DNA of 64,000 nt, taken from contig JBAZJI010000001.1 in NCBI GenBank assembly GCA_041651395.1, positions 891,920 to 955,919 of the forward strand, written 5' to 3'. The notes under the pieces were generated by a model. It did no database searches, was not told the origin of the DNA, and worked only from the letters and a program-made list of their open reading frames with translations. Both the position numbers and the translations under genes were made by a program. Position 1 is the first letter of the stretch; every line of letters begins with the position of its first letter. Shown here piece by piece: positions 1 through 60,909 of this stretch. The stretch is from Minisyncoccota bacterium (GTDB taxonomy: Bacteria; Patescibacteriota; Minisyncoccia; Minisyncoccales; JAGOPM01).

Positions 1-1
1 T

Positions 2-1267: not shown

Positions 1268-1282
1268 ATTGCAAATAAGCAG

Positions 1283-1320: not shown

Positions 1321-1380
1321 CACTGATATTAATTCCCAAACCTTGCGCAATTTGTTAAAATATTGTTGACGTTAAAAACC

Positions 1381-3579: not shown

Positions 3580-3588
3580 CAGAAAATT

Positions 3589-3981: not shown

Positions 3982-3990
3982 TAGATAATT

Positions 3991-5535
3991 ATGGCTGTCA
4001 AAATCTTTTCAGCGGCAATTGTAGGTTTTGGCGGGCGCATTATTGAAATTGAAGTGGAGGCTACACACGGCCTCCGCTCTTTTGATATTGTCGGCCTACC
4101 GGATAAATCCGTGCAAGAATCCAAAGACCGCACGTGTGCGGCCATAAAAAGCTCAGGTTATTCTCCGGCCTTTGCCCAAGCCAAAAAAGTTCTAGTCAAT
4201 TTAGCGCCGGCTGATCTGAAAAAGGAAGGTAGTTTTTACGATTTGCCCATTGCTTTGGGTTATTTGCTAAAAACCGAACAAATAAAATTTGACCCACGAG
4301 GAAAAATTTTCATCGGCGAGCTTTCGCTTAATGGCGAGCTCAAGCCGGCGCGGGGAGTTTTGGCTCTTTGTTTAGCTATCAGGGAAAATAAAGAGATTGC
4401 CAATATTATTGTGCCGCAGGCTAATGCCAAAGAATGCGCCCTGGCCTTTTTGGACACACCACAAAAAATCAATATTATCCCAGTTAATAGCCTTAAACAA
4501 ACCATAAACTGGCTGCAAGGCAAAGAAAAAATCGAAAATTACCAAATAGATAAAGAAATATTTTTAGGGGAGATTAATGACAAAGAGGGTATAGATATCG
4601 GCTGGATAAAAGGGCAGGAAACCGCTAAACGCGCCCTAGAAATTTGCGCCTCCGGCGGGCATAATCTTTTAATGGTTGGCCCACCCGGTGGAGGCAAAAG
4701 CCTTTTGGCCAAAGCCTTGCCCTCGATTATGCCGCCACTGGCTCTAAATGAAATGGTGGAAGTAACAAAAATTTATAGTTTGGCGGGGTTGTTGACTCCG
4801 GAAAACCCATTCATGGGCAGCCGGCCGTTTCGCTCACCTCACCATACTGCCAGCCCCTCAGCCATTGTGGGCGGGGCCGGAACAGCTAATCCGGGCGAAA
4901 TCACTTTGGCTCACCGGGGTATCTTATTTTTAGATGAATTTCCCGAATTCCACCGCGATGTTTTAGAATCTTTAAGACAACCGATGGAAGATGGCACTAT
5001 CACCATTTCGCGCGCCAAGCAGCGCGCCACTTTTCCTTGCCGTTTTACACTCTTGGCCGCGGCCAATCCCACACCCGGGGGATATTTTGAAAATGACGAT
5101 GGGCCAAATTATACCTCGGGGCAACTAGCCAAATATAAACGCAAACTTTCCGGCCCCATCGTCGACCGTATTGATTTATATGTAGAATTACCTCAAGTAA
5201 AATACGACAACCTTATCGACCAGACGCGGCAAGCCCAAAGCCAAAAAATCAAATTAAAAGTATTGGAGGCCAGAAAAATCCAAGTGGCCAGATTTGCCGG
5301 GCAGGGGATTCTGCTCAATAGCGAAATGCAGGTGCCGCAAATTGAAAAATATTGCCAGTTGGATACAGCGTCCCATAATTTGGCCAGAAAATTTGTCGAT
5401 TCAGGCGCGCTCTCGGCCCGCGGCTATCACCGAGTTTTGAAAGTTGCCCGCACTATTGCCGATTTAGCCAGTGAGCCCAATATTAAACAAGAACATTTAA
5501 GCGAAGCTCTAATGTTTAGGCAAAAAAATAATTAA
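3991..5535 (+). CDS. comM: YifB/ComM-family Mg-chelatase-like AAA+ ATPase
   Basis: N-terminal Lon-like domain, Walker A LLMVGPPGGGKSLLAK, Walker B GILFLDEFPEF, and the C-terminal motif SARGYHRVLKVARTIADL typical of ComM/YifB. Confidence 0.9.
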   Translation: MAVKIFSAAIVGFGGRIIEIEVEATHGLRSFDIVGLPDKSVQESKDRTCAAIKSSGYSPAFAQAKKVLVNLAPADLKKEGSFYDLPIALGYLLKTEQIKFDPRGKIFIGELSLNGELKPARGVLALCLAIRENKEIANIIVPQANAKECALAFLDTPQKINIIPVNSLKQTINWLQGKEKIENYQIDKEIFLGEINDKEGIDIGWIKGQETAKRALEICASGGHNLLMVGPPGGGKSLLAKALPSIMPPLALNEMVEVTKIYSLAGLLTPENPFMGSRPFRSPHHTASPSAIVGGAGTANPGEITLAHRGILFLDEFPEFHRDVLESLRQPMEDGTITISRAKQRATFPCRFTLLAAANPTPGGYFENDDGPNYTSGQLAKYKRKLSGPIVDRIDLYVELPQVKYDNLIDQTRQAQSQKIKLKVLEARKIQVARFAGQGILLNSEMQVPQIEKYCQLDTASHNLARKFVDSGALSARGYHRVLKVARTIADLASEPNIKQEHLSEALMFRQKNN

Positions 5536-5540
5536 CCAAA

Positions 5541-5566
5541 AACCTCCCCGACCTGGGGAGGTTTTT
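5541..5566. terminator. Bidirectional intrinsic terminator between convergent comM and the M23 peptidase gene
   Basis: aacctcccc-gacct-ggggaggtt hairpin (9 bp), flanked by an A run upstream and a T run downstream. Confidence 0.8.
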
Positions 5567-5576
5567 ATATTTTTGA

Positions 5577-6680
5577 TTATCGAAGCGGATTGCGCGGGGC
5601 GGCCCCGGAAATGCTGCCAACCTCAAAGTGCACATGGCAGCCCGTAACACCGATGGTTCTGCCTGTATTGCCGATCAAGCCAATGGTTTGGCCAGTGACC
5701 ACATCTTCACCCTCTTTAACGTTTACTCTTCCCATGTGGGCATAAAGGGTGGTTAAACCCGAAGGATGTTGGATTTTAACATAGCTGCCAAATCCGCCAT
5801 TATATCCGGAAGTCCGGACTTTCAAAACTTTTCCGCTAGCCGCAGCAAAAACCGGCTGGCCGCAAGAGCCCATACCCGGTGCTAAATCAACCGCATTGCG
5901 GAAGTGTAAACCTTGCGTCTTTTTGCAAACTCCACTCACGCGCGGAATTGGGCAGATAAAATAACTGTCGGGCACGATATTGTCTGCATATTGGCCTTGG
6001 GCAGAATAAGTCGGAGCTTTAGCTGGCATCTTCGCATTGGGCAAAATCAAAATATCCCCAGGGTAAAGCTTTTCGCTATCCAATTCATTAAAGGCAATAA
6101 TTTTATCCTTTCCTGACTGATAAATTTTAGCGATTTTATCCAAAGAGTCGCCATTTTGAACTGTATAAACCAAGCCATCGACCGGTAAAATTATCAAAGA
6201 CATTCCTTCTTTGATGGCGCTCTTAGCGCTTAAATCATTAGCCCAATAAATGGTTTGCGGCTTAATATCGTATTTATCAGCGATAGACTGGAAGGTATCG
6301 CCCTTTTGAACAATATATTCCACAATTTCCTTACCTGTAATACTTTGGGCTTCGGGCCTCTGCTCCTGGTAGTCATCTTCAATATTGGCAAAAGTTCTTA
6401 TTCTGGCGTTTTCCGGAGAGCAAACCGGCGCCAAACTATTGCCTTGGATAATATTCTGGTCGTAAACAGCCGCATCTTCGTTGCGCTGGGTGAGGTAAGG
6501 GGTTTGGCAATCCGCGATGTTTTCCGCCTTCACGGCAAAACGGGTGGCATCTGAAGTATTGTCGGGTAGTAAAAGCAAGCCAGTGGTTATGGCCAATAGT
6601 ATAGTTCCGATGCTAAAATAAGCTTTTTTATGCACCCCCTGAAGAAAAAATTCCTTCTTTAAGTGTCGAAATCTGGACAA
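5577..6680 (-). CDS. Secreted/membrane-anchored peptidoglycan endopeptidase: 2x LysM + M23 peptidase domain
   Basis: LysM repeats (YIVQKGDTFQSIADKYDI.., YTVQNGDSLDKIAKIY). M23 core: GGFGSYVKIQHPSGLTTLYAHM..GQTIGLIGNTGRTIGVTGCHVHFEV. The track start (6680) is TTG. A GTG at ~6635 giving MHKKAYFSIGTILLAITTG (signal/anchor) is an equally plausible start. Confidence 0.88.
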   Translation of the reverse strand: MSRFRHLKKEFFLQGVHKKAYFSIGTILLAITTGLLLLPDNTSDATRFAVKAENIADCQTPYLTQRNEDAAVYDQNIIQGNSLAPVCSPENARIRTFANIEDDYQEQRPEAQSITGKEIVEYIVQKGDTFQSIADKYDIKPQTIYWANDLSAKSAIKEGMSLIILPVDGLVYTVQNGDSLDKIAKIYQSGKDKIIAFNELDSEKLYPGDILILPNAKMPAKAPTYSAQGQYADNIVPDSYFICPIPRVSGVCKKTQGLHFRNAVDLAPGMGSCGQPVFAAASGKVLKVRTSGYNGGFGSYVKIQHPSGLTTLYAHMGRVNVKEGEDVVTGQTIGLIGNTGRTIGVTGCHVHFEVGSISGAAPRNPLR

Positions 6681-6750
6681 AATAGGATTTCCAGCCCTGC
6701 TTAAGCCCTAAGTAGGCCTTCCCAAGAGCCGGTTTTTTAGGCTATTTATG

Positions 6751-6779
6751 ATTATGGCACCCCTTCAAGGGCCGGTCAA
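6751..6779 (-). promoter_or_regulatory. Sigma70-like promoter for the M23 peptidase gene (TTGACC-17-CATAAT)
   Basis: On the minus strand, TTGACC lies at 6779-6774 and CATAAT at 6756-6751, with a 17-nt spacer. Confidence 0.45.
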
Positions 6780-6922
6780 GGCATTTTTGACTTATTTATT
6801 TTACGATCATAAAACAAAAACAACCTTAAAAATTGCCGTTTTAGAGGAAATTTTACACATTTTATCCACAAGCCATTAAAAACTAGTGATTTTCCCGGAC
6901 TTTTTGCTATACTGCCTGTATT

Positions 6923-7750
6923 ATGGAATATGACTTATTTGATCCAAGCCAGATAGAGCTGCTACTCTCCAGTCATGGGTTAAAACCGGCCAAAAGATTC
7001 GGACAAAATTTTATTATGGACCCAGAGGCTGTTGGGGCCATCATTGCCAGCGCACAAATAACAAAAAAAGATACGGTTTTAGAAATCGGCCCGGGCCTTG
7101 GAACCCTAACAGGGGCACTTTGCAAAACGGCCAAAAATGTCCTGGCTATTGAAAAAGACCCCAATATGGTGGGTATTCTGAGAAAAACCTGTGCCAAGTT
7201 CAAAAATTTACAAATCATCCATGCTGACGCTCTAAAATTTGATTGGGCAACAATTAAGTCTCCGTATAAAATTGCCTCTAATCTGCCTTATAACGTCGCC
7301 TCCCACTTAATCAGGCAAATCTTGGAAAGCTCCAACCGGCCGCAACTAATGGCCTTAATGGTTCAAAAAGAAGTAGGGGAGAGAATTGTCGCCCAGGCCC
7401 CGGATGCAAACATTTTGGGCCTTTCGGTCCAAATATACGCAAATGCCTCTCTAGAACTCATCGTACCCAGCACTGCTTTCTATCCCGAGCCAAAGGTAGA
7501 TAGCGCCATTGTCAGAATAGAACCAAAAAATGACGCACCGAGCGCTCAAAAAACTGCCGATATTTTCCGTTTGATAAAAATTGGCTTTTCCAGCCCCAGA
7601 AAAAAACTTTCTAACAATCTTAGCACTGGTCTTAATAGGCCTAAAAATGAAATTGAAGCCCTAATGGCCAAAGAAAATATCGATCTTTTGAGCCGCCCGG
7701 AAAACCTTTCTTTACATGACTGGGAAGTGTTAATAAAACATTTGGGATAA
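6923..7750 (+). CDS. rsmA: 16S rRNA (adenine1518/1519-N6)-dimethyltransferase RsmA/KsgA
   Basis: KRFGQNFIMDP, SAM motif VLEIGPGLGTLT, and NLPYNVAS. Length is typical. Confidence 0.92.
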   Translation: MEYDLFDPSQIELLLSSHGLKPAKRFGQNFIMDPEAVGAIIASAQITKKDTVLEIGPGLGTLTGALCKTAKNVLAIEKDPNMVGILRKTCAKFKNLQIIHADALKFDWATIKSPYKIASNLPYNVASHLIRQILESSNRPQLMALMVQKEVGERIVAQAPDANILGLSVQIYANASLELIVPSTAFYPEPKVDSAIVRIEPKNDAPSAQKTADIFRLIKIGFSSPRKKLSNNLSTGLNRPKNEIEALMAKENIDLLSRPENLSLHDWEVLIKHLG

Positions 7751-7762
7751 GCCTTGCGCGCG

Positions 7763-7771
7763 TGGTAAAAT
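7763..7771 (+). promoter_or_regulatory. Candidate extended -10 element (TGgTAAAAT) upstream of the T4SS-like operon
   Basis: TGGTAAAAT lies 25 nt upstream of the 7796 ATG. No clear -35 element. Confidence 0.3.
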
Positions 7772-7795
7772 AGTCGTGTAACAACAAATACGCGC

Positions 7796-10294
7796 ATGCA
7801 AAATAAATTGCGTTCTTTTTTCCAAAATTTTGGCAACTTTTTTAATCGTCAAAATGCGCTTTTGGCATTTGGTTTAGTAGCCATTCTCATTTTGCCAACC
7901 CATTTTGCCCATGCGGGTTTATTGGATTGGATTTTGAAGGGCGTAATTGCCGCGGTTATGTGGGTTGTTGCCCAAATAGTTTTAGGCCTCTCTCAGGCCT
8001 TGTTGGGAGTTTCCGCCTCATTAATGATGACAATTGCCGACCCCTCATTTGTTTGTGTGCGCTGGGAGGGTAATCAGTGTATGAGCTCACGCTACACCGA
8101 AATTTCCTTTGTGCGCGACGGCATCATCTTATGCCGCGACTTAGCGGGAATATTTTTGGTCATGGCCCTTATCAGTATCGGCATCGGCGTTGCTCTTAAA
8201 TTATTAGATGCCAAACAATCGCTGACCAAATTCGCCGTTTCGGCCATTTTGGTTTTTATTACCCCTATTATTACCGGCCCTATAATTGATTTTTCCAATG
8301 TCTTCATGTTTTCTTTCTTAAAAACCGGGGCAGCTTCTGGGGTCTTGGGACAAATTCAGCTTGTGGATGCCTTTATGGATATTTTCGGCAAATCTTGGAG
8401 CCAAGACGCTTCCTTTGCCTCATTTTTCCTGACGGTAATTTCAGCGCTTTTGGCACTTTTGGCTTTTGCGCTCTTTGCCGCCTATACAATGTTTCGGATT
8501 GCCATTTTACTTTTGAGCCGCTATGTCGCCTTATGGCTTTTAATTATGCTGGCGCCCTTGGCCTTTGCCATGCAAGCCTTGGGGCAACTGCGAGGGCAAC
8601 CCTATTTCAAATTTTTTGAACAAATGGGCCAGTATTATGAAAGATGGTGGCGAGAATTTATCGCTTGGTGTTTTACCGGTATCAATGTCGCTCTATTTAT
8701 TTATATTGCCGGCCGGGTTTCCTTGGCTTTAGCAGGAAGCGAATCAAAACTATTTAGGAGCTCCCCGATTGGCGGAGAAGTTTTTTACATCATTAATATT
8801 TCGGCGGATTTCGGCAATATCATTTCCATAATTATGCCCATTCTTATCCCACTTATCATTCTACATATGGGCTATAAACTTTCTTTGGAGTGGGGAGCTT
8901 CAGGCGCCACCGCTGTCATCGGGGCGGCTGACGGAATGGTAAATCTTGGCAAAACCGCCTTATTGGGTGTGGGCGGGGCCGCAGGGGGCGCCATGATGGG
9001 CAAGGCTTTGGCGAGCGGAGCAGGGCAAAAAGCTTTAACGGGAATACAAGGCATGACAACAGCTACAGCCAAAGATTCCAAATTCGGCAAGTGGCTCAAA
9101 AATACCAGTCTCTCGCAATCAATTAATGCCGCAGCTTCGCGCGGCCTAGAGAAAGGCGACAAAGTTATTGGCCAAAGGCAAAAAGCCGCCGACGAAAAAA
9201 TTACCCGGGCCAAGAAACTCGACGAACGCATGGAAGCCCAGGGTCGGGAAGGAAAATATATGGAAAACTTGGCAACAGTGGCGCCTATGTTTGAACCTAA
9301 CTATCAAGAAAGAGCTAAGCTAATCGAACTAGCCAAGAAAGGAAAAATTCCCGGGCTTAAAGACGAAGAGAAACAAAAAATTCTCTCCAATAAAAGCATT
9401 GATACTAAGACCAGAAAGGCTATGGTTGAGGCCGATCAATTTATTCTTAATGATCCTATTTTGGGCGAACAGTTCTTGAATGTTTATAACACCAAGGATG
9501 TTAAGGATGCCGGCAGCATTGCCATGAACGAAGCCATAAATAAAGCTGGTGTTGATTTGACCGGCGGGCAAGGCGAAAAACGCAAGAGCCTGCTTAAAGA
9601 AATTTTCAAATCCGCCAACTTTGGCCGCAGTTACGATTCCGAGATGACTGCTCTGGGCCTTACCGATGCCCAGCAACAAGATATCAGAGAGGCGCGCCAG
9701 AAATTCTATGACAAGGTCAAAGAACAGGCAGTCAAAGATGCTATCGGCTCACTCAACAAAGAAAAATTGGATAATCTCAGCCATGAAGATTTGATGAAGC
9801 CGGATTTGATTGAAAAAATTGCCAAGTATAGCAAAGACAAAGATGTTATTATGGGCGCAGCCAAGAGAGGCGGCAGCCAATGGTTCGAGCAGTACGTGCA
9901 AGCTATTCCTCCCGACAAGATTAATAGAACTATTGGAATGTTTTCGGCTGATGATTTCAAATCAATGGGAGCAAGCACCTTATCGGCTCCTGCTACTTTG
10001 CAACCCATGATGGCCAATATCTCCAAGCCTGATGCTTTTGGCGCCTATATGTCCCAATTACCTGACGACCCGCAGATCAATCAACAGATACAACAAATCA
10101 TTAATGACCCAGCCTGGCAAGCTAATGCCTTAAAAAATAATAATACCGCGGGCTTTAATTGGGCTGCAACGCTTGGCGCCAGAAACAGGCAAATCAAACT
10201 TAATGATATTCACGGAAATCCGATTGATTTTACTTCCGATACAAAAGCCGCCAAGCAGAAGATACAAGAATTAATTAATGCTCGCGTCCCGTAA
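7796..10294 (+). CDS. Polytopic membrane protein, VirB6/TrbL-like, with a long hydrophilic K/E/Q-rich C-terminal extension
   Basis: About 8-10 hydrophobic helices in the first ~400 aa, including the TrbL-like segment RYVALWLLIMLAPLAFAMQ. It is the first gene of an operon containing a VirB4 ATPase. The C-terminal ~400 aa is soluble. Confidence 0.55.
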   Translation: MQNKLRSFFQNFGNFFNRQNALLAFGLVAILILPTHFAHAGLLDWILKGVIAAVMWVVAQIVLGLSQALLGVSASLMMTIADPSFVCVRWEGNQCMSSRYTEISFVRDGIILCRDLAGIFLVMALISIGIGVALKLLDAKQSLTKFAVSAILVFITPIITGPIIDFSNVFMFSFLKTGAASGVLGQIQLVDAFMDIFGKSWSQDASFASFFLTVISALLALLAFALFAAYTMFRIAILLLSRYVALWLLIMLAPLAFAMQALGQLRGQPYFKFFEQMGQYYERWWREFIAWCFTGINVALFIYIAGRVSLALAGSESKLFRSSPIGGEVFYIINISADFGNIISIIMPILIPLIILHMGYKLSLEWGASGATAVIGAADGMVNLGKTALLGVGGAAGGAMMGKALASGAGQKALTGIQGMTTATAKDSKFGKWLKNTSLSQSINAAASRGLEKGDKVIGQRQKAADEKITRAKKLDERMEAQGREGKYMENLATVAPMFEPNYQERAKLIELAKKGKIPGLKDEEKQKILSNKSIDTKTRKAMVEADQFILNDPILGEQFLNVYNTKDVKDAGSIAMNEAINKAGVDLTGGQGEKRKSLLKEIFKSANFGRSYDSEMTALGLTDAQQQDIREARQKFYDKVKEQAVKDAIGSLNKEKLDNLSHEDLMKPDLIEKIAKYSKDKDVIMGAAKRGGSQWFEQYVQAIPPDKINRTIGMFSADDFKSMGASTLSAPATLQPMMANISKPDAFGAYMSQLPDDPQINQQIQQIINDPAWQANALKNNNTAGFNWAATLGARNRQIKLNDIHGNPIDFTSDTKAAKQKIQELINARVP

Positions 10295-10298
10295 TATT

Positions 10299-10739
10299 AT
10301 GGTTAACTCTTCCGATGTTGATTTTGAAAAAATGTATAAAGCTCTGCCGCCAGACTTAAAGGAAATTTTGAATTCTTCGGAAGTCAATGATACTATAATT
10401 TCCGTTTGCGAGGGATATGGTTTTGCAGAAAAATTTGCCGAAGTTCAAAAAAATGTCGGACTGGTTTTAGCCGGAGCGCTCTCTGTGGAAGATTTCAAAA
10501 ATTACATTCAGATGCTTTCCGAGCAGGGTGGGGTGGCGGCCTATAATAAAATTTATGTTGTCGCCTTTGCGCCGGTGGAGCGCTACCAAATTTTGGAGAA
10601 CGGTCAAACATTTTTTGGCAGCATGCCTGCCCCCTTACCCAAGGATACCCCCAATGAACCACTTAAAACATCTTGGGCGCCCCCAAAGCCCTCCCAAGAA
10701 GAGGATGGAATCGACCCCTATCGGGAAAAACCAGAATAA
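10299..10739 (+). CDS. Hypothetical soluble protein in the T4SS-like operon
   Basis: ORF with an ATG 4 nt after the upstream stop (the track start at 10278 would overlap the upstream gene). No family recognised. Pro-rich tail. Confidence 0.5.
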   Translation: MVNSSDVDFEKMYKALPPDLKEILNSSEVNDTIISVCEGYGFAEKFAEVQKNVGLVLAGALSVEDFKNYIQMLSEQGGVAAYNKIYVVAFAPVERYQILENGQTFFGSMPAPLPKDTPNEPLKTSWAPPKPSQEEDGIDPYREKPE

Positions 10740-10742
10740 TTT

Positions 10743-11138
10743 ATGGATTATCCTGTACCACAAATACAACACGAAACCAAAATTGGCGGTCTAACCTTTT
10801 CGCAGCTTATTTTTGTCGGGGGTGGGGTAGCTTTAGCTTCTATATTGTATTTTATTATTCCCCAATATTCCCACATTGTTTTCCCGATTATTGCCCTAGT
10901 AACTTTAGGTTTGGCTTTTGGCAGCGTGCACGGTATGAGCATTCCGACTTTTGTCGGTAAAACCATTTCTTATTTTTTTATCGGTCACACCTATATTTGG
11001 AAGAGTAAACGTTACGAGATATTTTCTCAACAAAACAAATTGCCCACAGAAAAAAAAGATACCGCCATGCCCGAATTGCCCAAGTCATCTATTACCAGAA
11101 GGCAAAGCAAAATTTCAGACTTAAATAAAATGATATGA
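10743..11138 (+). CDS. Small 2-TM protein, PrgI/VirB3-like
   Basis: ETKIGGLTFSQLIFVGGGVALASILYFI followed by a second TM segment. Its size and its position immediately upstream of VirB4 match Gram-positive-type T4SS PrgI/VirB3. Confidence 0.55.
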   Translation: MDYPVPQIQHETKIGGLTFSQLIFVGGGVALASILYFIIPQYSHIVFPIIALVTLGLAFGSVHGMSIPTFVGKTISYFFIGHTYIWKSKRYEIFSQQNKLPTEKKDTAMPELPKSSITRRQSKISDLNKMI

Positions 11139-11782
11139 TTGAAAGGCCTAAAAAAAATAATACTTTAGCCGCCCAAGACTTTTTAGGAATTTTAGACATC
11201 CGCGAAAGTACAATAATTCTAAAAGATAAAAGTCTCCGAGGGCTGCTTTATGTCACTTCCCAAAATTTCGGGCTCAAGTCCGGTGAAGAACAAGACGCCA
11301 TTATTTTTCAATTTCAACAATTTCTCAATTCTTTGGATTTCCCTTGCCAGATAGTTGTACAGTCGCGCAAATTGAATATGCAACGGTATTTTGATGACCT
11401 CAGAGCCCTAGAAGAGCAACAACAAAATCCCTTGCTGAAAATCCAAATGCAAGAATATCTGAAATTTATTGAAGGCTTGGTCAAATCTGGAACGATTATG
11501 ACAAAAAACTTCTTTGTTGCCGTACCTTTTTACCTGACGGAAATATCGGGTATCTCAGTAAGCAAAAAACTCGTCAATGATTTGACTGAAGAAAATTTCC
11601 AAAGGGCTAAGAATCAACTTTGGCAACGTTTGGAATTTGTCGCCTTAGGCCTGAAACGCTCCGGCCTGCAAGCTGCCGCCTTGAGCACCGAAGAGATAAT
11701 TGACTTGCTTTGGTCGCTCTATCACACCCGCGAAGCTGAACAGGGGTATTACCCAGAGCTTCCGCCAGAATTAATCAAATAA
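11135..11782 (+). CDS. T4SS-associated protein resembling the N-terminal region of VirB4/TraC-type ATPases
   Basis: ATGA overlap with the upstream gene. The segment ILKDKSLRGLLYVTSQNFGLKSGEEQDAIIFQFQQFLNSLDFPCQIVVQSRKL resembles the N-terminal module of conjugative ATPases. No NTP-binding motif. Confidence 0.4.
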   Translation: MIERPKKNNTLAAQDFLGILDIRESTIILKDKSLRGLLYVTSQNFGLKSGEEQDAIIFQFQQFLNSLDFPCQIVVQSRKLNMQRYFDDLRALEEQQQNPLLKIQMQEYLKFIEGLVKSGTIMTKNFFVAVPFYLTEISGISVSKKLVNDLTEENFQRAKNQLWQRLEFVALGLKRSGLQAAALSTEEIIDLLWSLYHTREAEQGYYPELPPELIK

Positions 11783-11786
11783 TATT

Positions 11787-13586
11787 ATGGGATTGCTCGA
11801 CTTCTTAAAAAAATCCAACCAGGATTCACCCCCCGTGCCACCGGGCTTCGATAATTTCCAAACTGTAACCCCGATGGATATCATCGTCCCCAACGAAATC
11901 GATGTTAAACCGACTATGTTAAGCTTGGGCGGGAGGCTTTCGCGAACTTATTTTATTTTTTCCTATCCCCGATATCTTAATGTCGGCTGGCTTTCCCAGG
12001 TGATAAATATGGATACAGCCTTAGACATTTCGCTCTATATCCACCCCATGGATACAGCTAATACGCTCAAAGAATTACGCCGCAAAGTTACGGATATTGA
12101 AGCTGAAATGATGGATCGGGACCAAAAGGGACTCATTCGCGACCCTGGCCTGGAAACCGCTTATAAGGATTTGGAAGCCTTGCGCACCAATCTCCAAACA
12201 GGACAGGAGAGAATATTTAATCTTGGCCTTTATATCACCGCTTATGCTGACCAAGAAGCCGAGCTCAACGAAATTGAATTACAGTTGCGCCAAGCCTTGG
12301 AGGCCCGCCTCAGCTACATCAAGCCGGCTTATTACGAACAAAAAGAGGGCTTTATTTCTACTTCTCCATATTGCTGGGATTTACTGGTTAAGCACAGCCC
12401 CATGAATACCCAAACTTTAGCCACGAGCTTTCCCTTTATCTCCTTTGATTTAAGTTCCAATGAGGGCATCTTATACGGCATTAATAAACACAATAATTCC
12501 TTAGTGCTTTTTGACCGTTTTGGCCTACAAAATGCCAATGAGGTTATTTTTGCCACGGCTGGTTCGGGAAAATCATATTTTGCCAAATTAGAAATTCTGC
12601 GCCATTTGATGTTTGGTGTCGATATTATTGTTATTGACCCGGAAAACGAATATAAATTCCTCTCTGAGGCGGTTGGCGGATCATTCTTTAATATCTCCTT
12701 ATCGTCGCAGGATCACGTTAATCCATTCGATATCTCTTGGAGTAACCCCGATGAAAATCCCGAGGATGTTTTACGCAGTAGCATTATCAGTTTGGTCGGG
12801 CTTTTTCGGATTATGTTGGGGGGGTTAACACCCGAAGAAGATTCTATTATCGACCAAGCGATAACCGAAACCTACGCCGCCAAAGATATCACCATTAAAA
12901 GCGATCCGACCCTCTGGGCGGAAAATGTGCCCACAATGAGCGATTTCGAATCAGTTCTGGAGAATATGCAGGGAGCCGAGCACCTTTTGGCCAAAATCAG
13001 AAAATACACCCAGGGAACTTTTGCTCAATTCTTTAACCAAAAAACCAATATTACCCTCGATAATAATCTAGTGGTTTTTGGCATCCGCGACATGGAAGAT
13101 TCATTGCGCCCCATCGCCATCTATATGGTAATGAAATACGTTTGGAATATGGTGCGCAGCTCGCTTAAAAAAAGAATTCTGGTTATTGATGAGGCTTGGT
13201 GGCTGATGCAAAACGAGGATTCGGCCTCTTTCTTATTTGGCATCGTCAAACGCGCCCGCAAATATTGGTTAGGCGTTTCCACTATTACTCAAGACGTTGA
13301 AGACTTCATGAAGTCAGAATATGGCAAACCGGTAGTCACCAATTCTTCCATTGTTTTTTTAATGAAGCAATCCAGCGCCACTATTGAAACCGTTCAGCAA
13401 ACTTTTAACCTGACAGACGGAGAAAAAATGCTCCTCTTGGAATCTCCAGTAGGAGAGGGGATATTCTTTGCGGGACAAAAACACGTTGTTATGCGCGCGA
13501 TGGCCTCTTACGCCGAAAACCAATTCATCACCACTAGTCCCGATGAGGTTAAAAAAATCATTGCGGCCAAAAAATTTGGGGGATGA
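11787..13586 (+). CDS. VirB4/TrbE/PrgJ-type T4SS ATPase
   Basis: N-terminal motifs LGGRLSRTYFIFSYPRYLNVGWL..ISLYIHP. Walker A VIFATAGSGKSYFAK (~12554-12577). Walker B ILVIDEAWWLM (~13171-13200). Also ITQDVEDF. Confidence 0.88.
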   Translation: MGLLDFLKKSNQDSPPVPPGFDNFQTVTPMDIIVPNEIDVKPTMLSLGGRLSRTYFIFSYPRYLNVGWLSQVINMDTALDISLYIHPMDTANTLKELRRKVTDIEAEMMDRDQKGLIRDPGLETAYKDLEALRTNLQTGQERIFNLGLYITAYADQEAELNEIELQLRQALEARLSYIKPAYYEQKEGFISTSPYCWDLLVKHSPMNTQTLATSFPFISFDLSSNEGILYGINKHNNSLVLFDRFGLQNANEVIFATAGSGKSYFAKLEILRHLMFGVDIIVIDPENEYKFLSEAVGGSFFNISLSSQDHVNPFDISWSNPDENPEDVLRSSIISLVGLFRIMLGGLTPEEDSIIDQAITETYAAKDITIKSDPTLWAENVPTMSDFESVLENMQGAEHLLAKIRKYTQGTFAQFFNQKTNITLDNNLVVFGIRDMEDSLRPIAIYMVMKYVWNMVRSSLKKRILVIDEAWWLMQNEDSASFLFGIVKRARKYWLGVSTITQDVEDFMKSEYGKPVVTNSSIVFLMKQSSATIETVQQTFNLTDGEKMLLLESPVGEGIFFAGQKHVVMRAMASYAENQFITTSPDEVKKIIAAKKFGG

Positions 13587-15517
13587 AAAATCCAATAATC
13601 AAAAAACTGTTTTGGCTTTCTTGGCTAGCCGCTTTGGCGGTTATTCTTTTTCCTTGCGCGACCTTTGCCCAAGTTAAAGCAGTACCTACACCGGTTATAC
13701 CGAGTAATGAAGGTATAGTTACCCCGGTTATACCGAGCAATGACTTTCGAAATTGGTGCCAAGTAAATTATCCGAATTTTAATTGCAATAGCGTTCCGGA
13801 TTTAGGCCAATATATTGCCTACTTATATCGCTTGGCTGTTTATGCCGCCGCCATAATCGTAATTTTTATAATCGTCCGGGAGGGCTTTGCTTATTTTTTA
13901 GCCTCGGGCAATCCCGGCAAATCTAATGAAGCCAAAGGAAAAATTTATTCGGCTTTTTTGGGTTTGATTATTCTTTTGGCCGGTTCATTAATTTTAAGCA
14001 CCATCAGTCCGAACCTAAACTCCTTGGACTTAAATTTGAAGCCCTTAGCTTACAATTTTAAGGCCCTGCAGGGCAAAGAACGCACTGTTACCACCCGCTA
14101 TCTGGCTATCCCGCTGGGAGAAATAATCACTGAAGCTTCTTTTAGCGAAAATTTCATGAAATCCATTACCGGGACAGCTGACCGGGCGGAGAAGCTAAAA
14201 AAAAATAATAAAGAAATCCAGGCGCTGGTTGAAGAATTTTATAGCACGATGCAGGCCTGCACCTGCGGGCAATCGCGCTGCTTAGATAATGTTTCTCCTT
14301 GCAGTAACGCTATTTGCACCAATGGGTCTTGTGACAAAGAAAAACTCGCCGCGCTAAAAAGCCAAATCACGGAAAAAATTTCCGCGCAAAAAGATAATAT
14401 CGCCGCCGTCCGCTCGGAAATGAAAAAACAGGGCAAAGGATTTGAAACACCTAAAAGCTCGCTACGCCAATTAAGCGCAGTTAATACCTTACTTAATTTG
14501 ACCGACGGGATAAACGTTATTGGCTATTATGACTTTTTGGCTTTGCGTGAAGACGCGGGCAAAAACATAATTATCGAATACGACACCAATCCTTTCCCGG
14601 AGTGGAAGCCTCTTTTCGACAGAAAAACTTTTGACCCGACCGTTTTTTATATCAATAAAGAAGAGGCCGGGCTTGCAATTATTCAAGCCCAACATTCTAT
14701 GAAGAATATGAATGTTGACCCCATTACCGATGCAGAACGTTACAGCCATGGAGCCGCTAGCGGCACAAAAGACCCCAACTTTGACCCGGGAGACGATAGT
14801 GATCAGCCTTTGCCCGAACCGCCAAGCGATACCAATAAATTACCCAGAAACTACCCCATGTGGTATCAAGGTGATGGCGCTTGGGGAAACTGCCTGCGCG
14901 GCATAGGTGGAGCAGCGCCTTTATGGAAAAGCGGCTGCGCCGACACTTCTTTGTCTATGGCTATCGGCTATTGGTATAAATTTAATGCTATCACTCGCCG
15001 CAGCTGGCTCTCTTACATCCGCAGCAACCCTCCGTCTTCCAGTATGGATACGGCTGGAGGGTCTTGTTTGCGCCCGGAAGGTGATGCTCCGGACCCTTAC
15101 CGGGTGCTTTATTATATGAATTACTACGGCGGCAACCTTGCCGACGGCACTTGGGACGAGGAGGCTTTAGGAAATTGGCTAGAAAAAATCAATCTGACTT
15201 TACAACCACTCTACAGAAAATCTTTTGATGCAATCGCACACCAATCTAATGATTTAGGTAAAAGCGTTTTGCTATTTTGCGATCATTTTGGTTTAGGGCG
15301 TTCATATCGCGCCAATAAAACCCGCTGCTCTTGGGAAGGGGATTTTGCCTGTAACCACTATGTTTTAGTAACAAAAGTCGAGGGGGATAAAATGTATATC
15401 AATGACCCGGGTTTTGGGGAACCCTATCTCACCAGGGGAGAATTTTCCTATTTTTCTTGCGGCGAGGTAGTAAATGAAGATATGTCTTTTGCGGTTTATC
15501 CAATAAAATGGAAATAA
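13583..15517 (+). CDS. Fusion protein: signal peptide + VirB2/TrbC-like (T4SS-pilin-like) TM hairpin + Cys-rich coiled linker + C-terminal C39-like papain-fold cysteine peptidase
   Basis: TM hairpin AVYAAAIIVIFIIV-REGFAYFLASGNPGKSNEAKGK-IYSAFLGLIILLAGSLILSTISPNL (~13805-14018). The C-terminal motifs YQGDGAWGN...SGCADTSLSMAIGYW (Cys codon 14936-14938) and CNHYVLVTKVEGDKMYINDPGFG (His codon 15356-15358) match the C39_2-type catalytic layout. Confidence 0.65.
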   Translation: MKNPIIKKLFWLSWLAALAVILFPCATFAQVKAVPTPVIPSNEGIVTPVIPSNDFRNWCQVNYPNFNCNSVPDLGQYIAYLYRLAVYAAAIIVIFIIVREGFAYFLASGNPGKSNEAKGKIYSAFLGLIILLAGSLILSTISPNLNSLDLNLKPLAYNFKALQGKERTVTTRYLAIPLGEIITEASFSENFMKSITGTADRAEKLKKNNKEIQALVEEFYSTMQACTCGQSRCLDNVSPCSNAICTNGSCDKEKLAALKSQITEKISAQKDNIAAVRSEMKKQGKGFETPKSSLRQLSAVNTLLNLTDGINVIGYYDFLALREDAGKNIIIEYDTNPFPEWKPLFDRKTFDPTVFYINKEEAGLAIIQAQHSMKNMNVDPITDAERYSHGAASGTKDPNFDPGDDSDQPLPEPPSDTNKLPRNYPMWYQGDGAWGNCLRGIGGAAPLWKSGCADTSLSMAIGYWYKFNAITRRSWLSYIRSNPPSSSMDTAGGSCLRPEGDAPDPYRVLYYMNYYGGNLADGTWDEEALGNWLEKINLTLQPLYRKSFDAIAHQSNDLGKSVLLFCDHFGLGRSYRANKTRCSWEGDFACNHYVLVTKVEGDKMYINDPGFGEPYLTRGEFSYFSCGEVVNEDMSFAVYPIKWK

Positions 15518-16401
15518 AAATCCACCAATTTATATTCTTCCTGTTATTAATTTTGCCCTTGCGTAGTTGCGGGGCAGCAGTTTCCGTTACTCCGGCACCC
15601 GATGCTTCAACGATCGTAGAATATACTTCCAGCGGAAATCAAAATGAAGCTTATTTGCGCGACGCCATCCCGATCGGAGATGCCTTTTTCCATGCAATAA
15701 GGTTTTTAACCGATATCAGCAATGAAATTGGCGGGATGACCGACGATTCGGAGGATTATCTTAATTCTGTCCAAAGTTTGCTGAAACTCTCCGATTCTTG
15801 CAGCCCCTCCTCATGCAAGGCTCGCTGCGAATTTGATTGCCCCTCCAATGCCAATGGCCCGCAGGATTGTTATTGTAAGCCTCTGCCTCCCGAACCTAAA
15901 ACTATGTGTAATATGGAAGCGGCCGAGGAGAACTACAAACTCCTAACAGAAAAATTTGAAACCGCTACTCGCAGCAGCCAAAACTATTTGGACCTTATCG
16001 AGAAGGCTAAGCCGCCCACCGATGATATCGAAAGGGTTAGCGGCACCAGTTTAAGGGATATAATTATTGCTAGCCGCTCAATAGATCCTTATCGAACATT
16101 TTACCAAAACTATAACCAAATATTCCGGGGTAAAATTAATACCAGTTTACCGGTAGTTTATCCGTCAAATTATGTCGTGGAAATGGAATATATAAAAAGA
16201 AAACTTGATCTTTCCCGGTTGGGATTTTTGCGCTGTAATACCCCCACCGCCAAAGAAGAAGATGTTATAGCCATTGGGGAGGGGGATATGGAATATAAAG
16301 GCCCCCTGCGGATAGATTTTATTCTGCAAAGTTATGGCACGCTGCCAGATGAACCGACCAACCATTTAGATTATTTTTGTTATTCTTATCAAAATATTTA
16401 A
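15508..16401 (+). CDS. Secreted Cys-containing hypothetical protein (T4SS-like operon)
   Basis: N-terminal signal-like segment FIFFLLLILPLRSCGAAVS. Cys cluster CSPSSCKARCEFDCPSNANGPQDCYC. Overlaps the upstream gene by 10 nt. Confidence 0.55.
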   Translation: MEIKIHQFIFFLLLILPLRSCGAAVSVTPAPDASTIVEYTSSGNQNEAYLRDAIPIGDAFFHAIRFLTDISNEIGGMTDDSEDYLNSVQSLLKLSDSCSPSSCKARCEFDCPSNANGPQDCYCKPLPPEPKTMCNMEAAEENYKLLTEKFETATRSSQNYLDLIEKAKPPTDDIERVSGTSLRDIIIASRSIDPYRTFYQNYNQIFRGKINTSLPVVYPSNYVVEMEYIKRKLDLSRLGFLRCNTPTAKEEDVIAIGEGDMEYKGPLRIDFILQSYGTLPDEPTNHLDYFCYSYQNI

Positions 16402-16406
16402 TCTTT

Positions 16407-17894
16407 ATGAAAAAATCTCTTCTTTTATATTTAACGCTCTTGGCGGGATTATGGGGTAGCACCGCTTTAGCTCAAACCGTCCGAACTTCCGGGCAAATTA
16501 ATTATCCAAAAACTTTTAATGGGCTAACAATTTTCCAAGGCAACCGCGCCCCACTGCTGCCCGATTATATCCAGTATATCTTTACCCTGATTATTATGGC
16601 CGCCGGATTAATCATTCTTTGGGTGATAATTTCTTCGGGATTCGAATGGTATATTTCCGCGGGTAATGCCGGAAAGGTCAAAGAATCAAAAGATCGGATT
16701 TTTGCCGCCTTTGTCGGAGTTATTATTTTATTTTTAGCCTATTTAATCTTGCAAACCATTAATCCGGCTTTAACAACCATGAATTTAACGACTTATTCTA
16801 CCGGGATAAGTATCGAAAATTCTATGCAGGATAAAATAATGGCTCCCTATTATGTAGCCGATTTAACCACCCTTGATCCGCCGGGCAATACTATTAAAAT
16901 CCCTCAAGAACGAATCACTTCAACTAAAATTTACTTTTTTACCGGGCGCAACTTTTCGGGAGAACCAACGGAAGCCGCTTATAATTGGTCATGCCCAGCA
17001 CCTAAAGCCGGCGGCGAAGACCAGAGGGCGGTAGAATGCAGCATGCCACTCCCTGAAATATATAATAAAGGCTCTTTAATTACTTACGAATTAAAGCCCG
17101 GGGTTTATATTTATAAAAGAGTAGGGCAATCGCAAATAAACCAACCATCTAAAGCTGTTATACCTTTTTATATCTCCGGCGATATCGCCAATATCGAATA
17201 TATGAATGATTACAGCAATATTCCGGGGAAAATAATCGGTTTTAGAATTTATAATGGCGCTGACCCCAGGCGCCGAATCGGGATAGTGGCTTGGGAAGGA
17301 AAAAACTATGAGGGCAAAGGTGTTGTTTTCGCCCCGCCCTATCACCAAGGCTGGTCGCCGCAGGGAACCGAAGATAATCCTTCTGGTATTGCCACATTTC
17401 CTTGGGCTGATAGTGAGGGTAAACAATTAGATATCAAATCAATTAAAGTTTTAGAAGTAGGCAACCGCCAACCTGCCGATGTAGAAGTTTATTCAGAAGG
17501 AGAATATTTCCCGGACAGCCTTTGCGAATTAATCGACAAATCCAGTGAGAATGAGACCGCGATGAAACAGCAATATCTGGAAATCAACTGCTCTCCGACC
17601 AGCAACAACTTTCCTAAATCAGTTAGGGTGCGTAACGGTATTGCGGTCATGATCTCCCAGTTTTATAACGGCCAAGACATGTCGCTTGTTTATGGCGGCA
17701 ATCCTCATATAGCCGATAAATATTATTTGGGCTTTATTAAAGGAGAAGTTTTTAAGGGCAATGACCCCAACCTAAACGATAACAGGGAGATAGGGGAGTG
17801 CGTCTGCTCCAACCGTAATTGGTGGACCTTGGGAATCGCATGCGCCATCTGGCAATCTTGTGGCACACATCTTATGACCTTTCCAATTCTTTAA
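16407..17894 (+). CDS. Second T4SS-pilin-like fusion protein: signal peptide + TM hairpin paralogous to 13583-15517 + ~370-aa C-terminal domain with beta/gamma-crystallin-like Greek-key signatures
   Basis: ATG at 16407 gives MKKSLLLYLTLLAGLWGSTALAQ. Hairpin AAGLIILWVIISSGFEWYISAGNAGKVKESKDRIFAAFVGVIILFLAYLILQTINPAL (~16554-16773). FTGRNFSG and WEGKNYEG fit the [YFW]xxxx[YF]xG signature. Confidence 0.6.
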   Translation: MKKSLLLYLTLLAGLWGSTALAQTVRTSGQINYPKTFNGLTIFQGNRAPLLPDYIQYIFTLIIMAAGLIILWVIISSGFEWYISAGNAGKVKESKDRIFAAFVGVIILFLAYLILQTINPALTTMNLTTYSTGISIENSMQDKIMAPYYVADLTTLDPPGNTIKIPQERITSTKIYFFTGRNFSGEPTEAAYNWSCPAPKAGGEDQRAVECSMPLPEIYNKGSLITYELKPGVYIYKRVGQSQINQPSKAVIPFYISGDIANIEYMNDYSNIPGKIIGFRIYNGADPRRRIGIVAWEGKNYEGKGVVFAPPYHQGWSPQGTEDNPSGIATFPWADSEGKQLDIKSIKVLEVGNRQPADVEVYSEGEYFPDSLCELIDKSSENETAMKQQYLEINCSPTSNNFPKSVRVRNGIAVMISQFYNGQDMSLVYGGNPHIADKYYLGFIKGEVFKGNDPNLNDNREIGECVCSNRNWWTLGIACAIWQSCGTHLMTFPIL

Positions 17895-17897: not shown

Positions 17898-17928
17898 AAA
17901 AATCCCCGCCTTTAAGCGGGGATTTTTT
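17898..17928. terminator. Bidirectional intrinsic terminator between the T4SS-like operon and jag
   Basis: aaaaatccccgc-ctttaa-gcggggatttttt: GC-rich stem flanked by an A run and a T run. Confidence 0.85.
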
Positions 17929-19663: not shown

Positions 19664-19695
19664 TTTTCCACAGGATGTTAACTTTCTGTGGAAAA
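19664..19695. promoter_or_regulatory. Inverted pair of DnaA-box-like sites upstream of dnaA
   Basis: TTTTCCACAG (19664-19673) and CTGTGGAAAA (19686-19695) form a perfect 10-bp inverted repeat. Each carries a 1-mismatch DnaA box (TTWTNCACA type). Confidence 0.55.
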
Positions 19696-19716
19696 ATGTT
19701 CTGATATTTGATTTCA

Positions 19717-19744
19717 TTGACATTATTCAAGGCGCGAATAAAAT
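19717..19744 (+). promoter_or_regulatory. Proximal dnaA promoter (TTGACA-16-TAAAAT)
   Basis: TTGACA at 19717-19722 and TAAAAT at 19739-19744. The ATG is at 19773. Confidence 0.45.
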
Positions 19745-19772
19745 AAGAACAAGAATTGAACAACATAACAAC

Positions 19773-21125
19773 ATGACTAATGAAGAACTTTGGCAAGCTG
19801 TCCTTGCTCAAATACAATTAGCCATCACTCAGGCGCAATTTGCGACTTGGTTTACTAAGACATCGATATTTACCAGAACAGAAAAAGGGGTAATAGTTTC
19901 TATTCCAAACAGCTTCTCAAAGGAATGGATCCAGAATAAATACCATAAACAAATACTTAAGATCTTAAACTCCCTTGATAACTCTATTAAAGATATTGAA
20001 TATCAGGTTAATCCTATCCAGCAACCTAAACCAAAAGAGGAGGATAATTATTTAATACCTACTTCTACCGCACCGCTCTTTGACCAGATTAATGCCGATA
20101 AAGAGACAAACTTAAATCCTAAATATAAATTTGAAAATTTCGTTGTCGGTGCTTTTAATGAGCTTACCTTTGCTGCCGCTCAAGCAATTTGTAAAAATCC
20201 GGGCACAGTTTACAACCCCTTCTTTATTTATGGGGGAACAGGTCTTGGTAAAACCCACCTCCTCCAGGCGATTGGCAATCAGGTTGCTAAAGATTTTCCG
20301 TTAAAAAAGATTAAATATATTCCTTCTGAAACTTTGACTAGTGATATTATTAATTCCATCCATAATCAGACGATAGAAGAGTTAAAGGCTAATTATAAGA
20401 AGGTTGATATTTTAATTGTAGATGATATCCAATTTTTATCTGGAAAGGAAAAAACTCAAGAGGAGTTTTTTAATGTTTTTAATGCTTTATACGAAAAAAA
20501 TAAACAGATAATTCTTTCCTCGGATCGGCCACCTAAAGCTATTGCCGCCCTTGAAGATAGGCTCCGCTCCCGCTTTGAAGGGGGGATGATTGCTGATATT
20601 GCTATCCCAGACTTCGAGACCCGAATCGCTATTTTAATGGAGAAAGCTAATGAAAAGGGGGTGGATTTACCTAAAGATGTTTATGAATATATTGCCACAA
20701 ACATTCAGCGTAATGTGCGCGAATTAGAGGGAGCGCTTAATAAAATAATCGCTAATTATAAACTGACAGGGCAGCAGATTGATCTGGAGGGGGCAAAGAA
20801 AATACTAAAAACCATTATCTCTCCAACCTTAAAACAAAAAAATCCTGAGAGGATAGTGCAAGTTGTGGCCGAATTTTATAACTTAAAAGAAAAAGATATT
20901 TATAGCGAATCAAGGAAAAAGGAAATTGTCCGGCCGCGCCAAATCGCAATGTATTTATTGAGGTTGGAATTAAAAAAATCCTTCCCGGAGATAAGTCGTT
21001 TTTTAGGTGGTAAAGACCATACAACTGCTATTTATGCTTGTAAAAAGGTTGAATCTGCTATTAAAGACGTTGATGGTTTTTCTGATGAAATAGACACGAT
21101 AAAACAGATGATCTATTCTTGTTGA
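19773..21125 (+). CDS. dnaA: Chromosomal replication initiator protein DnaA
   Basis: Walker A FIYGGTGLGKTHLLQAIG, LIVDDIQFLSGKEKTQEEFF, the RSRFEGG sensor, and C-terminal DNA-binding motifs RPRQIAMYL...GGKDHTTAIYACKK. Confidence 0.97.
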   Translation: MTNEELWQAVLAQIQLAITQAQFATWFTKTSIFTRTEKGVIVSIPNSFSKEWIQNKYHKQILKILNSLDNSIKDIEYQVNPIQQPKPKEEDNYLIPTSTAPLFDQINADKETNLNPKYKFENFVVGAFNELTFAAAQAICKNPGTVYNPFFIYGGTGLGKTHLLQAIGNQVAKDFPLKKIKYIPSETLTSDIINSIHNQTIEELKANYKKVDILIVDDIQFLSGKEKTQEEFFNVFNALYEKNKQIILSSDRPPKAIAALEDRLRSRFEGGMIADIAIPDFETRIAILMEKANEKGVDLPKDVYEYIATNIQRNVRELEGALNKIIANYKLTGQQIDLEGAKKILKTIISPTLKQKNPERIVQVVAEFYNLKEKDIYSESRKKEIVRPRQIAMYLLRLELKKSFPEISRFLGGKDHTTAIYACKKVESAIKDVDGFSDEIDTIKQMIYSC

Positions 21126-56650: not shown

Positions 56651-56657
56651 TAAAGTT

Positions 56658-60905: not shown

Positions 60906-60909
60906 ATAT

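Follow-up and report, generated by a model that had tools for sequence, protein, structure and literature searches.

The locus described here raises the question of whether an operon built around a VirB4-type ATPase and located beside the predicted chromosomal replication origin of a Minisyncoccota bacterium is a mobile conjugative element or a resident apparatus with a different function. The operon occupies positions 7796 to 17894 of a 64,000-nucleotide stretch, hereafter the window, that covers positions 891,920 to 955,919 of contig JBAZJI010000001.1 (assembly GCA_041651395.1). We conclude, with a probability of roughly 85%, that the cluster is a type IV secretion system (T4SS) characteristic of the Patescibacteria, or candidate phyla radiation (CPR), which resides on the chromosome, is inherited vertically, descends from the MPF_FATA conjugation machinery of monoderms, and comes nearest in its layout to the pGO1/pSK41/pIP501 subclass. 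The first-pass annotation, made from the DNA sequence alone, had proposed a T4SS-like apparatus that serves a purpose other than plasmid transfer. This interpretation is right but not new, since the relaxase-less state, the proximity to the origin, and the VirB2-like pilins have been published (PMC12102498, PMC10633639, PMC12857230). A substantial part of bacterial diversity belongs to the Patescibacteria, which depend on host cells, and few machines other than their T4SS have been demonstrated to be indispensable to such a life. The window contains no new class of system; it provides a clean, complete Paceibacteria example of a known T4SS that may be useful for the design of experiments, as its VirB4 is split, its VirB6 is nearly invisible to standard hidden Markov models (HMMs), and its hairpins are fused to variable domains.

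The operon consists of eight tightly packed genes, all on the plus strand, and the coordinates initially given for these co-directional open reading frames (ORFs) were exact: 7796-10294, 10278/10299-10739, 10743-11138, 11135-11782, 11787-13586, 13583-15517, 15508-16401, and 16377/16407-17894. Two junctions (11135/11138 and 13583/13586) are ATGA overlaps and a third one (15508/15517) overlaps by 10 nt, whereas the other gaps measure 3 to 5 nt, given the ATG starts at 10299 and 16407 of the public gene calls. The fifth gene (11787-13586, plus strand) encodes a short VirB4 ATPase of the MPF_FATA type with 599 aa. It matched the NCBIfam CD1110 family with 358.9 bits (cutoff, 325) and Pfam P-loop_TraG with an E value of 7.7e-28, and the Walker A (ATAGSGKS) and Walker B (ILVIDE, at residue 464) motifs were intact, as had been noted. 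More than 8,000 homologues were retrieved at E values of at most 1e-20. The best 120 of them are approximately 578 to 619 aa long and 62 to 100% identical to the window protein, and nearly all of the named ones among these 120 are Parcubacteria, Paceibacteria, Nealsonbacteria, or Minisyncoccales, with a few labeled "Pacearchaeota." The affinity of this VirB4 to patescibacterial relatives is based on the identity of these best matches. Only 2 nonsynonymous changes, compared to 111 synonymous ones, separate it from the protein of a sister strain.

The 215-aa product of the preceding gene (11135-11782, plus strand) had been considered to resemble a VirB4 N-terminal module, and the profile searches bore this out. 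This TrsD/TraC-like protein matched the NCBIfam TrsD model (E = 6.5e-4) as well as positions 110 to 217 of the VirB4 model of a Mycoplasma integrative and conjugative element (ICE), carries PF26593 (TraC-like) in the public gene calls, and aligned with pSK41 TrsD over 162 columns when compared by hhalign (E = 0.0023). Joined in silico, TrsD and VirB4 aligned in one stretch to positions 112 to 887 of the 894-position Mycoplasma-ICE VirB4 model with 315 bits, the sum of both parts. VirB4 itself aligned end to end with pSK41 TrsE (672 aa, 24.8% identity), whereas its match with pCF10 PrgJ began only at PrgJ residue 222. The joined alignment, the end-to-end TrsE match, and the position at which the PrgJ match begins show that VirB4 is split as in the pGO1/pSK41 subclass, with TrsD as the counterpart of the N-terminal part that longer VirB4 proteins contain.

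The genomic surroundings bear on whether this machinery is mobile or resident. We sampled 80 loci of other species with VirB4 proteins 55 to 72% identical to that of the window. In this sample, trsD adjoined virB4 in 65 of 69 loci, and an ORF with a pilin hairpin was located downstream of virB4 in 52 of 64. Among the 47 loci whose sequence extends 9 kb or more downstream, jag and yidC were found downstream in 44 and dnaA in 40, always in the same orientation, and the order ksgA, T4SS, jag-yidC-rnpA, dnaA recurred in 44 of these 47 testable loci. The same gene block was present on a JGI contig encoding a VirB4 with 66% identity. The arrangement beside dnaA, noted originally in a single genome, is thus conserved in its relatives. 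We also observed that many of the "binchicken" records (L005 to L084) are titled "uncultured Candidatus Saccharibacteria," whereas VirB4 identity and synteny point to Nealsonbacteria, Staskawiczbacteria, and Parcubacteria; the label is probably a placeholder.

At a shorter evolutionary distance, all eight genes had ratios of nonsynonymous to synonymous substitution rates (dN/dS) of 0.00 to 0.08 relative to two sister strains (L001 and L002; dS of 0.2 to 0.7), which corresponds to strong purifying selection. Selection of this kind also identifies the ORFs without annotation as genuine genes. In the comparison with Logan contig L001, dS was 0 to 0.01 from dksA/traR to ksgA and 0.19 to 0.77 from the VirB6-like gene rightwards; this jump within window positions 3589 to 10294 indicates that either the strains have recombined with a breakpoint near 7.8 kb or the assembly is chimeric.

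These features agree with a T4SS that has been described for the Patescibacteria. Quinonero-Coronel et al. (2025) surveyed 3,035 Patescibacteria genomes and reported a monophyletic VirB4 clade nested in MPF_FATA; genes for VirB4, TrsD, PrgI/VirB3, VirB6, and VirB2-like proteins occurred across about 2,400 genomes, and dnaA, dnaN, rnpA, ksgA, and rpmH were enriched beside virB4 in Paceibacteria and Microgenomatia (PMC12102498). According to a 2025 review, such systems are a recognized T4SS type (PMC12857230). The window shares with this clade its repertoire (VirB4, TrsD, PrgI/VirB3, VirB6, and VirB2-like hairpins), the absence of a relaxase and of a type IV coupling protein (T4CP) from the cluster, and the chromosomal site by dnaA, dnaN, rnpA, rpmH, and ksgA.

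An integrated conjugative element, or a decaying remnant of one, would provide a different explanation if its relaxase, T4CP, and integrase were located outside the window, but we consider this highly improbable. It is true that the VirB4 family is named after ATPases of ICEs and plasmid conjugation and that VirD4-like genes are located far from virB4 in most Patescibacteria genomes (PMC12102498), so that the statement "no coupling protein" holds for the window only. However, slot and gene order are the same in 44 of 47 loci of other species in spite of VirB4 identities of 55 to 72%, dN/dS is at most 0.08 for all genes, and the GC content of the operon (0.42 to 0.46) is close to that of the left flank (0.42 to 0.48) and thus not island-like. 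Reading every ORF of at least 140 aa in the 64 kb, we saw no relaxase, VirD4/TcpA, integrase, or transposase, which agrees with the first-pass annotation; neither an oriT nor tRNA genes were found in the window, and no att-like direct repeats were found to flank the operon. In addition, relaxases were detected in only 103 of the 3,035 surveyed genomes and seldom close to virB4 (PMC12102498). An ICE or genomic island was therefore rejected on the basis of GC content, synteny, dN/dS, and the lack of tRNA genes and att repeats. The original view of a chromosomal, non-conjugative apparatus stands, and the order conserved across species, together with the absence of mobility signatures, indicates vertical inheritance in a fixed chromosomal slot.

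This slot adjoins the predicted replication origin. The operon is directly preceded by ksgA and followed by jag, yidC, and rnpA and then by dnaA and dnaN. The dnaA-dnaN spacer contains three DnaA boxes, two of them perfect and one near-perfect, two boxes with one mismatch are located upstream of dnaA, and the GC skew switches at approximately 20 kb of the window; both features support an origin next to dnaA. Given these DnaA boxes and the GC skew, the end of the operon is located approximately 2 to 3.5 kb from the predicted origin, and its transcription is directed toward this origin and head-on to the leftward fork, as had been proposed. A bidirectional intrinsic terminator (17898-17927; AAAAATCCCCGC-CTTTAA-GCGGGGATTTTT) with a 12-bp stem and A5 and T5 on its sides takes up the interval between the operon and the convergent jag gene and is common to both, in accordance with the earlier description. 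At the other end, a consensus scan identified a promoter-like site, a pattern match only, within the 45-nt ksgA-virB6 spacer (TTGGGA, 18 nt, TG-TAAAAT; 7742-7771, plus strand).

With regard to orientation, the genes left of the predicted origin as far as the operon end (window positions 1-17894 and 19664-21345) are all on the plus strand, except for one M23/LysM gene, and these genes, including the 10-kb T4SS operon, are thus head-on to the leftward fork. The orientation of virB4 (plus) toward jag (minus) was kept in 44 of the 47 loci. Published accounts discuss gene dosage, and orientation is not mentioned in the text covered.

The products of the first and third genes would form the membrane platform. 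The first gene (7796-10294, plus strand) encodes a polytopic membrane protein of 832 aa, and hydropathy and ortholog profiles provide moderate support for its classification as VirB6/TrbL-like. Approximately eight hydrophobic helices within residues 1 to 350 are followed by a hydrophilic tail of 392 aa, an architecture termed "extended VirB6." In the first-pass annotation, this protein was described as VirB6/TrbL-like with a K/E/Q-rich tail of about 400 aa. Its polytopic nature, the tail length, and, with moderate homology, the family hold, but the tail (K, 11%; A, 11%; D, 8%; Q, 7%; E, 6%) is not strikingly K/E/Q-rich. Nor is the tail conserved, as tblastn found no match to it in other species. 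The window protein itself had no Pfam match, and most orthologs in its clade escape standard HMMs, with 1 of 26 matching Pfam TrbL and 1 of 26 matching TrbL_4. The best PDB match of a profile built from the 26 orthologs was R388 TrwI/VirB6 (7o3v_F, E = 0.054). Comparison by hhalign of the profile of the transmembrane (TM) domain with pSK41 TrsL, a member of the TrbL family, resulted in a probability of 71% (E = 3.7e-5, 204 columns), far exceeding the match with any other Trs or Prg protein. A homologue search with residues 1 to 420 returned nothing, although near-identical proteins exist; hydrophobic words probably swamped the index.

The second gene (10299-10739, plus strand) encodes a small soluble protein of 146 aa, or of 153 aa if translation starts at the ATG at 10278. 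As noted initially, it follows virB6, and this position is conserved, since orthologs were detected between virB6 and prgI in nine loci (tblastn, E < 1e-5). Its dN/dS was 0.07 to 0.08, it had no Pfam or NCBIfam family match, and a single-sequence AlphaFold2 (AF2) model was of low confidence (pLDDT of 49). The third gene (10743-11138, plus strand) encodes a 131-aa protein with TM helices at residues 14 to 32 and 34 to 52, in agreement with its earlier description as a 2-TM PrgI/VirB3-like protein. It matched Pfam PrgI with an E value of 1.4e-5 (26.0 bits; gathering score, 27), its ortholog in locus L004 carries PF12666, and 54 orthologs were located upstream of trsD.

The comparison with characterized plasmid systems supports the proposed descent. 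In pSK41, the order trsC (VirB3-like), trsD, and trsE (short VirB4) equals prgI-trsD-virB4 of the window, TrsL is related to the first gene of the window, and a CagC/VirB2-like small protein, TrsB, is present. However, pSK41 is a mobile plasmid with a relaxase, VirD4 (TrsK), a CHAP hydrolase (TrsG), a topoisomerase, and a single-stranded DNA-binding protein, none of which is encoded in the window, whereas the window system is fixed beside oriC and conserved across species. The order PrgH (VirB6), PrgI (VirB3), and PrgJ (VirB4) of pCF10 similarly parallels the VirB6-like, PrgI, and VirB4 proteins of the window, and PrgJ and the window VirB4 both belong to the NCBIfam CD1110 family. Differences are that PrgJ is a single protein of 796 aa, of which the part before residue 222 is supplied by TrsD in the window, and that pCF10 has LPXTG adhesins instead of pilin hairpins and contains PcfC (VirD4) and a relaxase. 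Searches by hhalign against pCF10 and pSK41 components, which were single-sequence targets and thus of low sensitivity, revealed no relation of the small soluble protein or of the Cys-rich protein encoded by the seventh gene to any of them, no counterpart of the middle region of the 644-aa protein or the C-terminal domain of the 505-aa protein (sixth and eighth genes) among the pCF10 Prg/Pcf and pSK41 Trs proteins, and no match to PrgK, TrsG, PrgL, or TrsH.

The two large proteins of the operon, which had been predicted to start with paralogous VirB2/TrbC-like TM hairpins, do so. The sixth gene (13583-15517, plus strand) encodes a protein of 644 aa composed of a signal peptide, a VirB2-like hairpin (approximately residues 75 to 141), a Cys-rich linker, and a C39-like cysteine peptidase domain with papain fold at the C terminus (approximately residues 440 to 644), the latter of which was absent from the first-pass annotation. 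The eighth gene (16407-17894, plus strand) encodes a protein of 505 aa in which a signal peptide and a hairpin (residues 58 to 116 counted from the ATG at 16407) precede a lineage-specific, extracellular domain of 365 aa. Both hairpins matched the T4SS_pilin family, albeit with scores (22.8 bits for the 644-aa protein and 24.3 bits for the 505-aa protein) below the gathering score of 26.6, and a purpose-built hairpin HMM recognized them with E values of 1e-24 and 3.7e-30, respectively. They also match the Mycoplasma-ICE pilin-like family, as seen for the 505-aa protein with NF045849, and are paralogous to each other (39% identity over 102 aa, E = 7e-26). The similarity to VirB4 and pilin families that the first-pass annotation had proposed was thus found by profile search in both cases. 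Monoderm MPF_FATA systems are usually stated to be without VirB2 homologues. TrsB of pSK41 (L086, 25115-25432) is annotated as a CagC-family (VirB2-like) protein, and NF045849, to which the hairpins of the window are similar, represents a pilin-like protein of a Mycoplasma ICE; pilin-like hairpins are therefore present in some monoderm MPF_FATA systems.

The hairpin HMM detected only these two ORFs in the window and 127 hairpin ORFs in 65 related loci, all 127 of which are on the virB4 strand. The 112 complete ones have a median length of 514 aa, with 103 exceeding 300 aa and 2 having at most 150 aa. The "pilin" of this clade thus forms, with few exceptions, an N-terminal module in extracellular proteins that are large and diverge quickly. 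This differs from the Saccharimonadia, which contain arrays of pilin genes, and we found no discussion of such fused hairpins in the survey's main text (PMC12102498). The C-terminal domains turn over rapidly: tblastn found no match to them in other species, where they are unalignable, the 365-aa domain had no Pfam match and only seven clusters among 1.84 billion representative proteins, and the 644-aa protein had only two homologues among 5.8 billion sequences. An AF2 model of the latter, based on an alignment of three sequences, was unusable (pLDDT of 39.5). Diversifying selection on the surface proteins was unsupported at the strain level (dN/dS of 0.03 to 0.06). Since a signal peptide is followed by a two-helix hairpin with VirB2 topology, the C-terminal domains are predicted, by analogy, to be located on the cell surface.

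Such an architecture might also be expected from a pure adhesion or anchoring organelle, in which the VirB4 machinery merely assembles hairpin-anchored adhesins and nothing is translocated. With 103 of 112 hairpins fused to extracellular domains that are large and variable, the arrangement looks more like a display of adhesins than like a conduit, and the window lacks a T4CP. We nevertheless judge this explanation unlikely, because type IV pili already serve adhesion in Saccharibacteria (PMC12857230) and because the retention of VirB6, the presumed channel subunit, together with a peptidase head suggests envelope penetration. The peptidase assignment is based on the conserved motifs SGCADTS and NHYVLV...INDP, with Cys452, His592, and Asp608 as candidate catalytic residues, and on Peptidase_C39_2, the score of which was 19.5 bits for the domain in the window and 29.4 bits, above the gathering score of 24, for an ortholog with 51% identity (P0122). 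A minor feature of the same gene is a near-tandem duplication of 24 nt (13687-13743), by which the peptide TPVIPSN(E/D) is repeated between the signal peptide and the hairpin.

Between the two hairpin genes, the seventh gene (15508-16401, plus strand) encodes the Cys-rich secreted protein recognized initially, with 297 aa, 10 Cys residues, and an N-terminal signal peptide. It is lineage specific, with a single ortholog among the 80 loci of other species (L006, 28% identity), and without a Pfam or NCBIfam family match; its dN/dS of 0.05 to 0.06 nevertheless identifies it as a real gene. A paralogous relationship of this protein with the Cys-rich linker in the 644-aa protein was rejected (BLASTP, E = 0.62). 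Three of the eight genes hence encode secreted, fast-diverging, lineage-specific proteins, one of them with a cysteine peptidase domain, as would be compatible with effector export and host manipulation, in which proteins, possibly the peptidase and the Cys-rich ones of the operon, are delivered onto or into the host as by the effector T4SSs that target bacteria or eukaryotes. Protein export or an alternative role was favored by Wang et al. (2023), who noted that coupling and relaxase proteins are missing (PMC10633639). We regard this possibility as doubtful: effector T4SSs normally require a T4CP, with Ptl and the Brucella VirB system as exceptions (PMC12102498), the secreted proteins have Sec signal peptides and hence need no T4SS for membrane crossing, and no recognizable pairs of toxin and immunity proteins are present.

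In the mechanism that we propose for the Patescibacteria T4SS of the window, VirB6/TrbL and VirB3/PrgI would form a membrane platform at which a VirB4 hexamer docks, with TrsD providing its N-terminal module. VirB4 would then use ATP to pull the two hairpin-anchored proteins out of the membrane, in the way in which VirB2 pilins are handled by VirB4, and the extracted proteins would form a short surface filament or stub, the large extracellular C-terminal domains of which may touch the envelope of the host. A local cutting of cell-wall peptides, a VirB1-like role, would most plausibly fall to the C39-like cysteine peptidase head, after which the apparatus would permit a contact-dependent exchange with the host cell rather than plasmid conjugation. 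One version of this mechanism, which we consider rather unlikely, is that the T4SS of this Paceibacteria clade builds no simple VirB2 pilus and that VirB4 instead extracts and assembles "headed" subunits, consisting of a pilin-like stalk and rapidly replaced domains, including the C39-like peptidase, into a modular, host-specific, envelope-cutting organelle. If so, the effector or adhesin would be part of the pilin itself.

As to the cargo, our weak and tentative preference is for the import of host macromolecules, especially nucleic acids, with protein export ranking second. The T4SS would in this case run in reverse, similar to ComB of Helicobacter pylori or the archaeal Ced system, and draw host or environmental DNA or RNA into a cell unable to make nucleotides. 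ComB and the crenarchaeal Ced are relaxase-less, T4CP-less machines centered on VirB4, as is the cluster in the window, and might be functional analogues. However, ComB has VirB7-10 outer membrane components that have no homologues in the window, and the matches of the window VirB4 to the Ced models were weak (CedB, 42.7 bits with a cutoff of 700; CedD, 22.8 bits with a cutoff of 600), so that it is not a member of Ced. The survey by Quinonero-Coronel et al. proposed a dosage effect of the origin and also a role outside conjugation, possibly the import of DNA or other macromolecules (PMC12102498), and a 2026 preprint reported tubular structures at the parasite-host interface, perhaps T4SS pili, along with host RNA uptake. 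The genomic context provides weak evidence for nucleic acid handling in that ComM, of a transformation-associated helicase family, and polynucleotide phosphorylase (PNPase) are recurrent upstream neighbors, although this may merely reflect the synteny of housekeeping genes close to the origin. Components that bind DNA or act as nucleases were not identified in the operon, and deletion of comEC in Southlakia ends competence but not viability, whereas the T4SS is essential (PMC12857230).

Several observations weigh against the overall interpretation as a Patescibacteria T4SS with a host-directed function. The VirB6 homology is moderate (71% probability with TrsL and an E value of 0.054 against the PDB), and the PrgI and T4SS_pilin scores of the window proteins are just under the Pfam gathering thresholds. 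Neither a VirB8-like nor a canonical VirB1 component was detected by hhalign with the single-sequence, low-sensitivity targets, and a VirD4-like protein may be encoded elsewhere in the genome. The function is carried over by analogy from a distant class, the Saccharimonadia, in which transposon sequencing (Tn-seq) showed that the T4SS and pilins are indispensable for Southlakia epibionticum to grow as an epibiont (Wang et al. 2023; PMC10633639). Hairpins linked to domains of 350 to 500 aa may be sterically barred from VirB2-like polymerization, in which case the term "pilus" may be wrong. Lastly, ComEC-dependent DNA uptake is dispensable in Southlakia (PMC12857230), which, given its essential T4SS, argues against a simple coupling of the T4SS to competence.

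A further gene of possible relevance for the T4SS encodes a LysM-LysM-Peptidase_M23 cell-wall hydrolase (5577-6635, minus strand; Pfam M23, E = 1.8e-23; LysM, E = 1.5e-22). It is a conserved neighbor upstream of ksgA, with the same position in approximately 20 loci, and M23/LysM-containing VirB1-like proteins are associated with virB4 in Paceibacteria (PMC12102498). This hydrolase is a possible VirB1-type accessory of the T4SS, and together with the C39-like peptidase it could substitute for VirB1. The region from 3589 to 6635 encodes a DksA/TraR zinc-finger protein, ComM (a Mg-chelatase-like helicase), and, on the opposite strand, this LysM-M23 protein, followed by ksgA, an order seen in many related loci, often after pnp. 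The gene between pnp and dksA/traR (1363-3579) encodes a protein of 738 aa, the N-terminal half of which is long, rich in P, Q, and K, and of low complexity and the C-terminal half of which is a coiled coil; the protein is conserved at the strain level and weakly in locus L006.

On the other side of the predicted origin, the only other secretion ATPase of the window is an orphan PilB/GspE-type protein of 432 aa (28486-29784, minus strand; T2SSE, 400 bits) with a tetra-Cys motif. Its gene is located between ruvB and a DHH-like gene, has no pilC or pilM beside it, and does not encode a VirB11. The region from 42903 to 44566 contains an N6_N4 DNA methylase gene (E = 3.7e-47) that shares an ATGA overlap with a 222-aa ORF without a family match; the two are probably a type II restriction-modification pair. 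Finally, a mirrored paralogous module extends from 49236 to 62481, where genes for proteins of 559 and 1,912 aa are followed by those for proteins of 1,433 and 523 aa; the small pair is 33% identical, the giant Cys-rich pair is 28% identical over approximately 1,000 aa, and all are probably surface proteins.

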